Part shown: in pieces, positions 1 to 33,851 of the stretch
How positions within the stretch are numbered: the stretch's first letter is position 1
How the letters are laid out: each line of letters opens with the position of its first letter
The notes under the pieces: model-generated
What the model saw: only the letters and a program-made list of their open reading frames with translations
Told to the model about the DNA's origin: nothing
Databases searched by the model: none
Program-made: the position numbers and the translations under genes
Assembly: GCF_003334255.1 (NCBI RefSeq)
Contig: NZ_QOWU01000003.1
Direction: 5' to 3' (one strand)
Length of the DNA stretch: 64,000 bases
DNA from: Escherichia coli
Lineage (GTDB): Bacteria; Pseudomonadota; Gammaproteobacteria; Enterobacterales; Enterobacteriaceae

Positions 1-752
1 TTCTGGGGATTGATTTTTGGCTGGAAGCCTTATTTTTATTCCGCCCGATAATCGTTTGTACCCTAACTGGCGCTATTCTCGGTGATATTCAGACTGGCTT
101 AATTACCGGTGGTCTGACAGAGTTGGCTTTCGCCGGATTAACCCCTGCAGGTGGTGTTCAGCCGCCCAACCCGATTATGGCGGGTCTGATGACCACCGTC
201 ATTGCATGGTCTACGGGCGTTGATGCCAAAACAGCAATTGGTCTTGGCCTGCCGTTTAGTTTGTTAATGCAGTACGTCATTCTGTTCTTCTATTCCGCTT
301 TCTCATTATTTATGACCAAAGCCGATAAATGCGCGAAAGAGGCGGATACGGCAGCGTTTTCCCGGCTTAACTGGACAACGATGCTCATCGTCGCTTCAGC
401 GTATGCGGTGATTGCTTTCCTCTGTACTTACCTGGCACAGGGGGCGATGCAGGCGCTGGTGAAAGCGATGCCCGCCTAGCTGACCCACGGCTTTGAAGTG
501 GCTGGCGGTATTCTGCCTGCCGTTGGTTTTGGCTTGCTGCTGCGCGTAATGTTCAAAGCGCAATATATCCCTTACCTGATCGCCGGTTTCCTGTTTGTTT
601 GCTACATCCAGGTCAGCAACCTGTTGCCGGTTGCCGTACTGGGCGCAGGCTTTGCGGTGTATGAGTTTTTCAATGCGAAATCCCGGCAGCAAGCGCAACC
701 GCAGCCCGTTGCCAGTAAAAATGAAGAAGAGGACTACAGCAATGGGATCTGA
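1..752 (+). pseudogene. agaC: PTS N-acetylgalactosamine/galactosamine IIC component; 5' end outside window; reading frame interrupted by in-frame TAG at 477-479
   Basis: ORFs 123..479 and 498..752 are in the same frame and together read as one mannose-family IIC membrane protein (...QALVKAMPA*LTHGFEVAGGILPAVGFG...); 3' end overlaps agaD start by 11 nt. Confidence 0.8.
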
Positions 753-26433: not shown

Positions 26434-26634
26434 TGTAATATCCTTTCTCTTTCTTAGACAGTACCTTACGGCACTGGTGTTAATACCCGATCTTCTGCGC
26501 ATCCTCGCGACTAATGACAACCCTAACCCAGCTCTATGTGGGTAAAGCCTCTCATTAGCCGCGCGAACCTCTGCAACGGAAGATCATTCATAGCAACAAT
26601 ACATTAGTTTCCAGTGAATTGCTGCCGTCAGCTT

Positions 26635-26660
26635 GAAAAAAGGGGCCACTCAGGCCCCCT
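26635..26660 (-). terminator. rpsO intrinsic terminator (bidirectional hairpin)
   Basis: GGGGCC-ACTCA-GGCCCC flanked by A-run and T-run. Confidence 0.75.
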
Positions 26661-26679
26661 TTTCTGAAACTCGCAAGAA

Positions 26680-27045
<366 letters not shown>

Positions 27046-28485: not shown

Positions 28486-28520
28486 AAAATTAATTTCAGG
28501 TGGAAGGGCTGTTCACGTTG

Positions 28521-28593
28521 ACCTGATAAGACGCGCCAGCGTCACATCAGGCAATCCATGCCGGATGCAGCGTAAACGCCTTATCCCGCATGG
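28521..28593. repeat. REP elements in infB-rbfA intergenic region
   Basis: GACCTGATAAGACGCGCCAGCGTCACATCAGGC and GCCGGATGCAGCGTAAACGCCTTATCCCGCATGG. Confidence 0.75.
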
Positions 28594-28606: not shown

Positions 28607-31279
28607 TTAAGCAATGGTACGTTGGATCTCGATGATTTCGAATACTTCGATCACATCGCCAGTGCGGACGTCGTTGTAGTTCTTAACGCCGATACCACAT
28701 TCCATACCGTTACGGACTTCGTTAACGTCATCTTTGAAGCGGCGCAGGGACTCCAGCTCGCCTTCGTAGATAACCACGTTGTCACGCAGAACGCGGATCG
28801 GGTTGTGACGTTTAACCACACCTTCGGTAACCATACAGCCTGCGATGGCACCAAATTTCGGCGATTTGAACACGTCACGAACTTCCGCCAGACCGATAAT
28901 CTGCTGTTTCAGTTCCGGAGACAGCATACCGCTCATCGCCGCTTTCACTTCGTCAATCAGGTTATAGATGACGGAGTAGTAACGCAGATCCAGGCTTTCC
29001 GCTTCAATCACTTTACGTGCAGAGGCATCAGCACGTACGTTAAAGCCAACCAGGATGGCGTTGGACGCCGCAGCCAGGGTGGCGTCGGTTTCGGTGATAC
29101 CACCTACGCCAGAACCGATGATCTTCACTTTAACTTCGTCAGTAGACAGTTTCAGCAAGGAGTCGGAGATCGCTTCGACAGAACCCTGTACGTCTGCCTT
29201 CAGGACGATATTCACTTCGTGAACTTCGCCTTCGGTCATGTTGGCGAACATGTTCTCGAGTTTAGATTTCTGCTGACGCGCCAGTTTAACTTCGCGGAAT
29301 TTACCCTGACGATAGAGTGCAACTTCACGCGCTTTCTTCTCGTCACGTACAACGGTAACTTCATCACCCGCAGCCGGTACGCCGGACAGGCCGAGGATTT
29401 CCACCGGAATGGACGGACCCGCTTCCAGCACTTCCTGACCCAGTTCGTTACGCATCGCACGAACACGACCGTATTCGAAGCCACACAGAACGATATCGCC
29501 CTTGTGCAGAGTACCTTCACGTACCAGAACGGTAGCAACCGGACCACGACCTTTATCGAGGAAGGATTCGATAACCGCACCGCTCGCCATACCTTTACGT
29601 ACCGCTTTCAGCTCCAGAACTTCCGCCTGCAGCAGGATAGCGTCCAGCAGTTCATCGATACCGGTACCCGCTTTCGCAGATACGTGTACGAACTGGCTTT
29701 CACCGCCCCACTCTTCCGGCAGGATGCCGTACTGGGAGAGTTCGTTCTTAACGCGATCCGGATCAGCTTCTGGTTTATCGATCTTGTTCACTGCAACCAC
29801 CACCGGTACCTGCGCCGCTTTCGCGTGCTGGATTGCTTCGATGGTCTGCGGCATCACACCGTCGTCGGCAGCAACAACCAGGACTACGATGTCCGTTGCC
29901 TGCGCACCACGAGCACGCATTGAAGTAAACGCGGCGTGCCCCGGGGTGTCCAGGAAGGTGATCATGCCGTTTTCAGTTTCAACGTGGTATGCACCAATGT
30001 GCTGGGTAATGCCGCCCGCTTCGCCAGAGGCCACTTTCGTTGAACGAATGTAGTCCAGCAGAGAGGTTTTACCGTGGTCAACGTGACCCATGATGGTCAC
30101 AACCGGCGCGCGCGGTTCAGCCGCAGCACCCGTGTCACGGTCGCTCATTACCGCCTCTTCCAGCTCGTTTTCACGACGCAGGATAACTTTATGGCCCATC
30201 TCTTCAGCAACCAGCTGTGCGGTTTCCTGATCGATAACCTGGTTGATGGTTGCCATTGCGCCCAGTTTCATCATCGCTTTGATGACCTGAGAGCCTTTAA
30301 CCGCCATCTTGTTCGCCAGTTCGCCAACGGTGATAGTTTCGCCGATCACAACGTCACGGTTAACGGCCTGAGCAGGCTTCTGGAAGCCTTGCTGCAGCGA
30401 AGAACCTTTACGTTTTCCGCCTTTACCGCCACGTACTGCTGCGCGTGCTTCTTCACGATCAGCTTTTGATTCAGCGTGTTTGTTGCCTTTCTTCGGACGC
30501 GCTGCTTTCGCGTTACGACCACGGCCACGGCCGCCTTCGACTTCACGATCGCTTTCGTCTTCTGCCTGGCGAGCATGTTGAGAAGTAGTGACGTGATAAT
30601 CGCTGGAATCTTCAGTCGGTTCCGCGTTATCAGTCCATTTGTTTTCTTCCGCCATACGACGTGCTTCTTCAGCAACGCGACGTGCTTCTTCTTCGAGTTT
30701 ACGACGCGCTTCTTCTTCAGCTTTACGCTTGAGCTCTGCAGCTTCCTGCTCACGGCGGGCTTTTTCAGCCTGGGCGTTTTTAGTCATATCGTCTTGTTGA
30801 TTGCTCACTTTGTCTTTTTCCGCAGCTTCACGTTTCGCTTGTTCAGCAGCTTCACGCTTAGCTTGTTCTGCGGCCTCACGTTCAGCTTTTTGTTGCGCCT
30901 CGCGTTTAGCCGATTCTTCTGCCTCACGACGGGCTTGCTCTTCCGCTTCACGCTGCGCTTGCTCTTCCGCTGCAAGGCGTTCAGCCTCTTGCGGATCGCG
31001 TTTCACAAAGGTGCGTTTCTTGCGGACTTCGATTTGTACCGATTTGCTTTTTCCACCGGTACCAGGAATGTTAAGGGTGCTGCGTGTTTTACGTTGCAGC
31101 GTCAATTTGTCCGGGCCTGAATTTTTCTGATTCAGGTGGTCAATCAAAGTCTGTTTCTCTTGTGCAGACACAGAGTCGTCAGCAGACTTCCGGATACCTG
31201 CATCAGCAAATTGCTGTACCAGGCGTTCCACGGAGGTCTGTCGCTCTGCGGCCAGCGTTTTAATCGTTACATCTGTCAT
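28607..31279 (-). CDS. infB: Translation initiation factor IF-2
   Basis: 890 aa; GTP-binding domain ([16 protein letters not shown]); N-terminal E/A/K/R-rich repeats. Confidence 0.97.
30785..30808 (-). other. infB: Internal in-frame start codons for IF2-beta (GTG, codon 158) and IF2-gamma (ATG, codon 165)
   Basis: Counting the translated ORF puts V158 (GTG at 30806-30808) and M165 (ATG at 30785-30787) at the reported isoform starts. Confidence 0.6.
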
Positions 31280-33271: not shown

Positions 33272-33330
33272 GCCCACCCCCAAGACATAAAAAAAGGGCC
33301 TAAAGCCCAGTTATTCTGTAGTCAGATAAC

Positions 33331-33356
33331 AAAAAACCCCGATAAATCGGGGCTTT
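33331..33356 (-). terminator. Hairpin terminator/attenuator downstream of metY tRNA
   Basis: Minus strand AGCCCCGAT-TTAT-CGGGGTTTTTT between metY and rimP. Confidence 0.65.
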
Positions 33357-33477
33357 ATATAACTGAACCCTATAACCGCAACTGCGGTCTGGAGCACTTT
33401 CCAGAAGGATTTTTTCAAATCCCACTACGAAGGCCGAAGTCTTCACAGTATATTTGAAAAAGGACTCTAAGGGAAAG

Positions 33478-33554
<77 letters not shown>

Positions 33555-33813
33555 CCTGAAACGTGGCAAATTCTACTCGTTTTGGGTAAAAAATGCAAAT
33601 ACTGCTGGGATTTGGTGTACCGAGACGGGACGTAAAATCTGCAGGCATTATAGTGATCCACGCCACATTTTGTCAACGTTTATTGCTAATCATGTGAATG
33701 AATATCCAGTTCACTTTCATTTGTTGAATACTTTTGCCTTCTCCTGCTCTCCCTTAAGCGCATTATTTTACAAAAAACACACTAAACTCTTCCTGTCTCC
33801 GATAAAAGATGAT

Positions 33814-33851
33814 TAAATGAAAACTCATTTATTTTGCATAAAAATTCAGTG
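33814..33851 (+). promoter_or_regulatory. Candidate ArgR operator (tandem ARG boxes) upstream of argG
   Basis: AATGAAAACTCATTTATTTTGCATAAAAATTCAGT contains two TGnAT…ATTCA-like 18-mers, 50-90 nt upstream of the argG ATG. Confidence 0.5.

Follow-up and report, generated by a model that had tools for sequence, protein, structure and literature searches.

Within infB, the Escherichia coli gene for translation initiation factor IF2, lies a stretch of imperfect tandem repeats, which raises the question of whether the repeat belongs to the DNA or to the protein, what structure the repeated peptide adopts, and how far the number of units varies among strains. The window analysed here comprises 64,000 nucleotides of E. 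coli DNA (contig NZ_QOWU01000003.1), and a sequence-only reading of it had described the repeats as encoding a low-complexity segment of IF2, prone to slippage and to length variation. The answer that we regard as probable is that these repeats encode an Ala-rich, highly charged and periodic segment of IF2, most likely a linker helix of the ER/K type. The gene, its isoforms and the repetitive N-terminal linker have long been known, and the natural length polymorphism described below is a minor addition to them.

The gene is infB, and its assignment to IF2 in the sequence-only reading was right. The open reading frame encodes 890 residues, the 801 bases tested are 100% identical to infB of K-12 MG1655, and 5,426 of 5,426 complete E. 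coli genomes carry the annotation translation initiation factor IF-2 at the matching locus. Pfam domains were found at residues 1-51 (IF2_N), 56-94 (IF2_assoc) and 314-364 (IF2_N), and the GTPase domains PF00009 and PF22042 are carried by IF2 homologs. The gene order is rimP leader, metY, rimP, nusA, infB, rbfA and truB; the ORFs of the window reproduce the operon context metY-rimP-nusA-infB-rbfA-truB, the rimP leader, a tRNA-Met and an S15 leader were detected in the window, and nusA is annotated beside infB in the other E. coli genome records inspected. Sequence identity, domains, operon and internal starts all agree with membership of bacterial IF2 (infB). The features considered are collected in Table 1.

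Table 1. Position of the features of infB within the 64,000-nt window
Feature	Coordinates	Strand	Basis
infB CDS (IF2-alpha / IF2-1, 890 aa)	28607..31279	minus	ORF, K-12 identity, Pfam
N-terminal module: IF2_N (1-51) and IF2_assoc beta-hairpin (56-94), NusA-binding part of domain I	30998..31279	minus	Pfam, AlphaFold2, literature
Predicted single continuous alpha-helix, residues 96-157	30809..30994	minus	AlphaFold2, charge pattern
Array 1, seven imperfect 24-nt units, octapeptides A[KQRE]REA[AEQ][EQ][QKS], residues 100-155	30815..30982	minus	Codon layout, Tandem Repeats Finder, spacing-24 family
Longest exact direct repeat, copy 1, AGCGGAAGAGCAAGC, 15 nt	30957..30971	minus	Direct reading; partner 24 nt downstream in coding direction
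Longest exact direct repeat, copy 2, 15 nt	30933..30947	minus	Direct reading; lag 24
Three most alike units, residues 132-155	30815..30886	minus	Successive-unit identity 19/24 and 20/24 nt
32 nt upstream of GUG158 (last unit and GAC AAA), sufficient for internal initiation	30809..30840	minus	del1 allele
GTG codon 158, internal in-frame start of IF2-2 (IF2-beta)	30806..30808	minus	Codon position, literature
ATG codon 165, internal in-frame start of IF2-3 (IF2-gamma / beta2)	30785..30787	minus	Codon position, literature
Second predicted long charged helix, residues 165-216 (domain II start), holding array 2	30632..30787	minus	AlphaFold2, charge pattern
Array 2, 21/24-nt units EEEARRKL / EEEARRVA / EEARRMA, residues about 188-211	30644..30727	minus	Tandem Repeats Finder, periods 21 and 24

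The periodicity of array 1 is clear at both the nucleotide and the protein level. Neighbouring units share 13-20/24 nt, Tandem Repeats Finder returned two arrays of period 24 (30814-30888, 3.1 copies, 82% matches; 30915-30971, 2.4 copies, 84% matches), and a repeat search recovered a family spaced by 24 nt from 30794 to 30970. The nucleotide autocorrelation at lag 24 amounts to 0.65 over 30790-30960 and 0.79 over 30810-30890, no other lag except 48 comes near it, and none of 5000 codon shuffles reached the observed value (z = 7.0-8.0). These scores and arrays contradict an absence of periodicity, the outcome that had been named as speaking against the repeats. Moreover, the protein autocorrelation has its maxima at 8 and 16, not at 7, and 8 is the best period in every homolog compared. 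The two strings originally quoted are present on the plus strand (gcttcacgcttagcttgttc at 30849-30868 and gcctcacgttcagctttttg at 30873-30892), and the quoted peptide is encoded there, except that its first residue is E133 and not K. Tandem repeats do occur in the span first proposed, 30790-30960 (residues 107-164), but the true limits of the array are 30982..30815, that span omitting unit 1 and overrunning the array into the start codon of IF2-2. As for the longest exact direct repeat, its first copy starts at CDS index 308, and an E. coli protein (P0002) is without exactly the unit that separates the two copies (AQREAEEQ).

The DNA periodicity is almost entirely set by the periodicity of the protein. 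When synonymous codons were permuted with the protein held fixed, the autocorrelation at lag 24 was 0.63-0.67, the real sequence scoring 0.65-0.71 (z 0.7-1.9); under the same permutation the longest exact in-register repeat was 12.8 ± 2.6 nt (15 nt observed), and exact repeats of at least 8 nt numbered 8.5 ± 2.3 (six observed). Identical residues in different units share their codon in 42/98 cases (0.43), within the 0.25-0.71 per residue that the codon usage of the array gives. DNA similarity beyond the needs of the protein, as would indicate recent duplication or homogenisation, was sought in array 1 by this synonymous permutation and was not found. Because synonymous permutation reproduces the lag-24 signal, the repeat resides at the protein level, with saturated synonymous sites between units, and the similarity of the array-1 units is a by-product of a periodic protein and not of recent DNA duplication.

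Regarding the structure of this periodic protein, AlphaFold2, run on a 38-sequence alignment, gives a helix over residues 96-157 (block-mean pLDDT 79-90), followed by a break at 158-164 (pLDDT <50 at 160-163) and preceded, in the N-terminal module, by helices in 6-52 and strands at 58-72 and 78-92; the pTM of 0.29 conveys no information on tertiary arrangement, and there is no confident helix-helix packing. Of the residues in helix 96-157, 53% are charged, one is a large hydrophobic residue and one is Gly or Pro, the net charge of the array-1 segment being -5. Seventeen i,i+4 pairs are of opposite charge and none of the same charge, an arrangement matched by 0 of 5000 shuffles. Thus, the segment has the high E/K/R content, the opposite charges at i,i+4 and the lack of a hydrophobic seam that mark ER/K SAHs, and, in the AlphaFold2 prediction, also their long uninterrupted helix. 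In the homolog alignment A108, A112, A116, A124, A128, A132 and A136 are at least 90% conserved and E113 is invariant, Ala at unit positions 1 and 5 being nearly invariant among the aligned enterobacterial and related gammaproteobacterial homologs. Apart from two weak matches to designed helices, a PDB sequence search with the segment returned entries of full-length E. coli IF2 only, and a fold search of the AlphaFold2 model against the PDB gave no match at E <= 0.001, although an extended helix makes such a search uninformative. On the model and the charge pattern, the seven octapeptide units most probably form a single long alpha-helix of the ER/K type, 96-157, and the term 'low-complexity segment' understated what is predicted to be an ordered, charged single helix of 62 residues.

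The shorter isoforms of IF2 start at positions 158 and 165 (PMC10486304). The GTG at 30808..30806 and the ATG at 30787..30785 agree with the inactivating mutation g474c, which affects the third base of codon 158, and with t494c, which likewise fits ATG165 (PMC3334882); both GUG158 and AUG165 were recorded as lying inside 30790-30960. Since these codons begin the shorter isoforms, the predicted helix exists only in IF2-alpha. NusA is bound by IF2-alpha residues 1-50 plus 57-90, and a 'long flexible linker' joins residues 1-90 to the rest of the factor (PMC12297416). Because the predicted helix stops where the shorter isoforms begin, we infer that array 1 is an IF2-alpha-specific linker behind the NusA-binding N-terminal module. 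Array 1 stops 7 nt short of GUG158, and the 26 nt adjoining this codon are identical in 12/12 fetched alleles; furthermore, IF2-2/3 are still expressed from the del1 allele, in which the deletion extends up to 32 nt upstream of the IF2-2 start (PMC3334882).

Beyond the break, the helix predicted at 165-216 (block-mean pLDDT about 79-84) contains 20 i,i+4 pairs of opposite charge and none of the same charge. Array 2, which it holds, has a 14-nt exact repeat at lag 21 and natural alleles of +21 and -21 nt among E. coli, CMZE046, AH21H025 and AR_0149 being natural variants of this array. This array lies outside the span covered by the sequence-only reading.

The predicted length variation of array 1 does exist among strains. 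In-frame, whole-unit alleles of -96, -48, -24, +24 and +48 nt were found in the 5,426 complete E. coli genomes, and the comparison of repeat number among infB alleles, which had been proposed as a check, yields a natural series of 3, 5, 6, 7, 8 and 9 units, 7 being typical. Coding tandem repeats were thus evident both as head-to-tail units above chance and as whole-unit strain alleles. Length alleles were counted in at least 18/5,426 genomes (about 0.33%), a minimum, as BLAST summaries reveal insertions poorly: 96-nt tile queries flag deletions, but insertions go unnoticed, a +24 allele giving a full-length alignment with just 2 mismatches. The use of real +24 and -24 alleles as queries provides a better census, yet alleles with other junctions are missed. 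All length alleles were taken from deposited assemblies, not reads, among them those of N68, N10, N25, OkiPb01695 and STEC2018-553. Several independent junctions are represented among the array-1 alleles and fall on the longest exact direct repeats (8-15 nt), and indel mapping places most of the natural +24, -24 and +48 events in the units of residues 132-155. The K-12 arrangement, to which the array of the window is identical, is kept in 5,420-5,424/5,426 genomes according to tile searches and in at least 99% of the evenly sampled records; in a sample evenly spaced across the ranking, 29/29 full-length records have exactly the K-12 length. Recurrence at the longest direct repeats supports slippage, but the rarity of the alleles makes 'prone' an overstatement. 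Ninety-four junction-specific probes, designed to cover every repeat-mediated deletion or duplication and joined in a single query, matched 2,368 genomes, which were treated only as candidates and then verified singly; these matches were rejected as a census, as SNP haplotypes of other lineages recreate the hybrid 28-mers. A literature search, largely restricted to papers outside subscription journals and thus to the exclusion of the 1990s infB population studies, found no earlier report of natural infB length polymorphism.

Other explanations of the array have to be weighed against a charged helix. It is rather unlikely that the array is an intrinsically disordered low-complexity region for multivalent, RNA-dependent cold condensation, with the repeats as stickers and spacers and with no rigid helix. 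In the presence of RNA the N-terminal region of IF2 favours phase separation, an effect that is stronger at 4 °C, and the IDR is shorter in thermophiles (PMC11838494); in the same work the whole N-terminus (about 320 aa) is treated as an IDR, with low AlphaFold3 confidence and helix in 'some regions' only, and the high proportion of charged residues in the array is compatible with such a role. However, the continuous AlphaFold2 helix with its pLDDT values and the i,i+4 charge register, far above chance, argue against disorder, near-invariant Ala at unit positions 1 and 5 is unexpected in a register-free spacer, and the loss of 1-158 in the condensation experiment takes the N1 and IF2_assoc modules with it and thus does not isolate the array. 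Both readings are not exclusive, a charged helix being a conceivable condensate module as well. A coiled coil that dimerises IF2 or pairs helices 96-157 and 165-216 is scarcely credible: two long helices split by a 7-residue break are present, and regular Ala spacing could pack in principle, but the period is 8 and not 7, there is one large hydrophobic residue in 62, and the Ala stripe shifts by 40° every four residues and winds round the helix with no seam. The low pTM, the lack of confident packing and a fold search with nothing significant point the same way, and heptad periodicity with hydrophobic a/d positions was sought in array 1 and not found.

At the nucleic acid level, it is improbable that the repeat acts mainly in the mRNA, as a purine-rich, weakly structured platform for internal initiation at GUG158 / AUG165. 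The closeness of the array end to GUG158 and the sufficiency of about 32 nt (the last unit) for IF2-2/3 (PMC3334882) would suit this role, as would a last-unit stretch unpaired in the minimum-free-energy fold and the constancy of the proximal 26 nt in every fetched length allele, but only the last unit is needed, leaving the seven units, the amino acid periodicity and the Ala and charge register unexplained. Folding is ordinary both over 251 nt (z = +0.45; 125/200 shuffles fold at least as well) and over 81 nt (z = +1.0; 172/200), and mRNA structure as the main role was rejected on these energies; an Rfam search gave no family match inside infB. Almost no weight can be given to a hypermutable repeat of the contingency type, in which selection would keep the DNA repetitive so that IF2 length switches often. 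Independent gains and losses of units are recurrent, yet nearly all genomes and evenly sampled records retain the K-12 arrangement, and with 24-nt units every change is in frame and allows no on/off switching. In addition, exact repeats are neither longer nor more numerous than synonymous permutation yields, and the saturated synonymous sites between units imply no homogenisation. Frequent, reversible length change that switches expression was sought in array 1, where all changes proved to be in frame and all 29 sampled records to be of K-12 length.

Array 1 is best regarded as encoding a charged helix of designed appearance that only IF2-alpha possesses and that stops at the internal starts, a view of interest for present studies of the coupling of IF2 to NusA and of IF2 condensates induced by cold. 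The 8-residue period would arise from Arg/Lys and Glu alternating four residues apart. The helix would measure about 9 nm if fully helical, each unit adding about 12 Å, and could act as a tether or semi-rigid spacer, fixing how far the N-terminal module on NusA can reach from the body of IF2 on the ribosome. In-register identities of 8-15 nt would permit occasional slipped-strand mispairing or short-homology recombination, adding or removing whole units in frame, by which unit-number alleles would originate repeatedly, yet stay rare. The segment is constant at 63 aa in core Enterobacteriaceae and spans 53-83 aa in the other homologs compared, which suggests purifying selection on length in the former. 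It is a long shot that the unit number is a molecular ruler for the reach from NusA on RNA polymerase to IF2 on the 30S, or that it tunes cold condensation; if so, the 3-9-unit alleles and the differences in length between genera would represent functional tuning and not neutral slippage noise. A related possibility is that the natural +/-7-aa alleles of array 2 alter sensitivity to lamotrigine-like IF2 binders. The allelic series and the ±7-aa variants of the next helix are ready natural reagents for linker-length tests, and the length alleles call for caution in infB-based typing and with drugs aimed at the IF2 N-terminus.

Several known systems resemble array 1. Resistance to lamotrigine arises when a charged, repetitive N-terminal stretch of IF2 spontaneously suffers an in-frame deletion, of which there are three classes, or a short duplication; examples are delta-8 and delta-17, the latter removing residues 176-192 (Stokes et al. 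2014, PMC4371806; PMC10486304). Like the array-1 alleles, these indels affect infB and are events of the same type, but they map to domain II (158-290), downstream of array 1 and near or in array 2, and array 1 is not known to have a drug phenotype. Contingency loci (phase-variable simple sequence repeats) share with array 1 the slipped-strand change of copy number in a coding tandem repeat; array 1 differs in its 24-nt imperfect units (13-20/24), in-frame changes, variants of about 0.3% and no switching of expression.

Closest of all is the domain I linker of E. coli IF2 described by Laursen et al. (2004, Protein Sci 13:230), which we take to be array 1 itself; linker residues ~98-157 are reportedly helical but mobile. 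This segment connects the IF2N subdomain with the conserved portion of IF2, in IF2-alpha only; the published description of a long flexible linker agrees with a helix predicted at 96-157 behind a structured module of residues 1-92, and there is no difference in kind from array 1. Finally, ER/K SAHs are known from (E4K4)n peptides and from myosin VI, myosin X and caldesmon. Array 1 contains more Ala and Gln than these, has a net charge of -5, and its stable monomeric helix is a prediction; the likeness to eukaryotic SAHs is drawn without any claim of sequence homology. Both, however, are rich in Glu, Arg and Lys, place opposite charges at i,i+4, lack a hydrophobic seam and form (in array 1, by prediction) a long isolated helix, the 8-residue period of array 1 corresponding to two i,i+4 steps.

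The repeated DNA belongs to infB, as the sequence-only reading had proposed in naming IF2: the 801 bases around the seven-unit array (array 1) show 100% identity with infB of E. coli K-12 MG1655, and the matched gene is annotated infB in 5,426 of the 5,426 complete E. coli genomes of the collection. The gene sits in its expected operon, with the rimP leader, metY tRNA-Met, rimP and nusA on the upstream side and rbfA, truB and the S15 leader downstream. A plus-strand ORF of 120 aa (33454-33816), overlapping the metY tRNA in antisense, is almost certainly spurious.

Features of infB and its surroundings in the window
Feature	Position	Strand	Remarks
infB ORF, translation initiation factor IF2	28607..31279	minus	890 codons
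Array 1	30982..30815	minus	seven octapeptide units, residues 100-155
Array 1, units 1-4		minus	ERLAAEEQ, AQREAEEQ, ARREAEES, AKREAQQK
Array 1, units 5-7		minus	AEREAAEQ, AKREAAEQ, AKREAAEK
Period-24 tandem array	30814-30888		Tandem Repeats Finder
Period-24 tandem array	30915-30971		Tandem Repeats Finder
GTG codon 158, IF2-2 start	30808..30806	minus	inside the coordinates of the sequence-only reading
ATG codon 165, IF2-3 start	30787..30785	minus	inside the coordinates of the sequence-only reading
Array 2	30644-30727	minus	21/24-nt units, residues about 188-211
Neighbourhood of lamotrigine-resistance mutations	about 30647-30766		residues about 172-211, domain II
naRNA4 (REP-derived nucleoid-associated RNA family)	28520-28590	minus	Rfam match, infB-rbfA intergenic region
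Ribosomal protein S15 leader	26893-27007	minus	expected between pnp/rpsO and truB
SraG sRNA	26492-26663	plus	expected between pnp/rpsO and truB
rimP leader	33289-33389		upstream of rimP
metY initiator tRNA-Met	33478-33554		upstream of rimP

Adjacent units of array 1 have 13-20 of 24 nucleotides in common, and a repeat search of the window traced the family at 24-nt spacing over 30794-30970. None of 5000 codon shuffles reached the observed lag-24 autocorrelation of 0.65-0.71 (z = 7-8), which shows that the periodicity is real and far above chance. The tandem repeats claimed earlier were thus borne out, also by the period of 24 given by Tandem Repeats Finder, and both nucleotide strings quoted occur in the window; the span proposed, 30790-30960, omits unit 1 and runs into the next feature, and the first residue of the quoted peptide is E133 instead of K.

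The repetition of the DNA is a by-product of the periodic protein. When synonymous codons were permuted and the protein kept, the lag-24 value was still 0.63-0.67 (observed against permuted, z 0.7-1.9); among 98 pairs of identical residues in two units, 42 share their codon (0.43), inside the range predicted from codon usage within the array; and no exact in-register repeat is longer than 15 nt, where permutation gives 12.8 ± 2.6 for the longest, while those of 8 nt or more number six, where permutation gives 8.5 ± 2.3. Selection has not made the units, which are old, more alike, nor has it kept repeats out.

The length variation between strains that had been predicted from slippage is found in nature, with alleles of -96, -48, -24, +24 and +48 nt in the deposited assemblies of at least 18 of 5,426 genomes (0.33%). 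All changes are in frame and comprise whole units; as lower bounds, there are at least eight variants of +24, two of +48 and six of -24 nt, with one each of -48 and -96 nt. In an even-step sample through the collection, each of the 29 full-length matches covers exactly 801 bases, and ranking with a 201-nt query sets a loose upper bound of about 3% on variant frequency. The two records ranked lowest with this query are DETEC-S565 (+24 nt, an extra AAEQAKRE unit) and N68 (-96 nt, a deletion between two copies of AGCGTGAAGC that removed four units); junction-specific probes recovered the former junction exactly in six genomes, with one near-match, and the latter in N68 only. A probe panel, whose candidates were verified by annotated CDS length and alignment, added 2824, E5 and bR_120_Kylling (-24), STEC2018-553 (-48), OkiPb01695 (+48) and 02B17CRGN002 (+24), while real alleles used as queries yielded N10, N25, 23CRST038, O157 Al Ain and WS4437A-1 (+24), CM185152 (+48), and APEC E19025, RMDEC364 and EC130 (-24).

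Alleles of equal length differ in junctions and flanking SNPs, so that gain and loss of units is recurrent. Two +24 types duplicate different units and encode one protein (WP_000133053.1), and the -24 alleles, with 96.7-100% mutual identity, represent at least four haplotypes. The sites of these events match the longest direct repeats of perfect identity, which measure 15 and 11 nt at lag 24, 10 nt at lag 96 and 8 nt at lag 48. P0002, a partial E. coli protein representing a cluster of 603 sequences, is without unit 2 (AQREAEEQ), precisely the one that the 15-nt repeat flanks; no such -8-aa allele was found among the complete genomes inspected. A further protein, P0033 (87% identical), has a segment of only 31 aa, resembling the -32-aa allele of N68. 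The latter strain, isolated from CSF, belongs with N10 and N25 to one human-isolate series with consecutive accessions (NZ_CM165878.1, NZ_CM165902.1 and NZ_CM165897.1), a clustering for which either their lineage or a common assembly pipeline might account. A literature search, largely outside subscription journals and early population studies of infB, found no description of the natural allelic series.

All homologs examined show the octapeptide pattern, and 8 is their best period. Between the VRKxRTF anchor and the K-V start motif, E. coli, Salmonella, Citrobacter and close relatives have a segment of 63 aa; its length is 53-83 aa elsewhere (71 in Atlantibacter, 83 in Proteus), the differences often being multiples of 8; unit number therefore shifts over evolutionary time, yet is constant within the core family.

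Pfam places IF2_N (1-51), IF2_assoc (56-94) and a further IF2_N (314-364) in the protein, and no Pfam domain in residues 96-216. AlphaFold2, run on 38 aligned sequences from enterobacteria and related bacteria (model pTM 0.29), predicts a small helical domain (6-52), a beta-hairpin (58-92), a single unbroken helix over 96-157 (block-mean pLDDT 79-90), a break at 158-164 (pLDDT below 50 at 160-163) and a second long helix (165-216). Of residues 96-157, 53% are charged, only one is large and hydrophobic, and one is Gly/Pro; the stretch contains 17 opposite-charge and no same-charge i,i+4 pairs, which 0 of 5000 shuffles reach. Among the aligned homologs, conservation is at least 90% for the alanines at unit positions 1 and 5 (A108, 112, 116, 124, 128, 132, 136) and complete for E113. 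The protein autocorrelation has its maxima at 8 and 16, the 8-residue period equalling two i,i+4 steps. The alanine stripe shifts by 40° every four residues and thus winds round the helix, forming no seam. The segment accordingly carries the signature of an ER/K-type single alpha-helix, the helix itself being a prediction, and a coiled coil was rejected on its defining tests, given the winding stripe and the period of 8. Fold and PDB searches added nothing.

The internal starts of IF2-2 and IF2-3 are published, and the inactivating changes g474c and t494c fall exactly in codons 158 and 165 (PMC3334882; PMC10486304). Both starts coincide with the sole break between the two long predicted helices. 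Since the predicted helix stops at 157 and IF2-2 begins at 158, no isoform but full-length IF2-alpha contains array 1. The module of domain I that binds NusA, at the C-terminal part of the latter, comprises residues 1-50 plus 57-90, and a long flexible linker connects it with the remainder of IF2 (PMC12297416); we infer that array 1 forms that linker.

The best supported explanation is that the periodic charged helix would act as a spacer, specific to IF2-alpha, that separates the module binding NusA from the body binding the ribosome, with rare repeat-mediated gain and loss of units held at low frequency. The main alternative, compatible with a spacer, is that array 1 belongs to a disordered region that drives condensation with RNA in the cold: phase separation is largely lost in the beta isoform, which is without residues 1-158 (PMC11838494), although that deletion takes away the folded N-terminal module as well. 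A role of the repeats at the mRNA level is plausible only for the last unit, since IF2-2/3 are still made after deletion up to 32 nt upstream of GUG158 (PMC3334882), which leaves at most that unit in the internal initiation region. The 26 nt preceding GUG158 are unchanged in all length alleles fetched; against such a role, mRNA folding is ordinary in comparison with shuffles (z = +0.45 over 251 nt, +1.0 over 81 nt) and an Rfam scan matched no family to array 1. A contingency locus was likewise rejected on the tests that define one.

Array 1 is the repetitive linker already known from domain I of E. coli IF2: the repeat was read correctly from the sequence, and it is an ordinary feature of a known gene. 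Array 2 also varies in nature, by +21 nt in CMZE046 and by -21 nt, on different SNP backgrounds, in AH21H025 and AR_0149; a 96-nt tile placed there falls below 80% coverage in 34 of 5,426 genomes, in one of them merely because the record begins inside infB. These ±7-aa variants lie in the neighbourhood of lamotrigine-resistance mutations and might alter drug sensitivity. Every published spontaneous resistance mutation is either an in-frame deletion or a short duplication within IF2 domain II, for example delta-8 and delta-17 (residues 176-192) (PMC4371806; PMC10486304).

Among known systems, array 1 is like ER/K single helices in composition and register, and its alleles are of the same mutational kind as those of the lamotrigine-resistant mutants, which, however, are located in the adjacent domain II.
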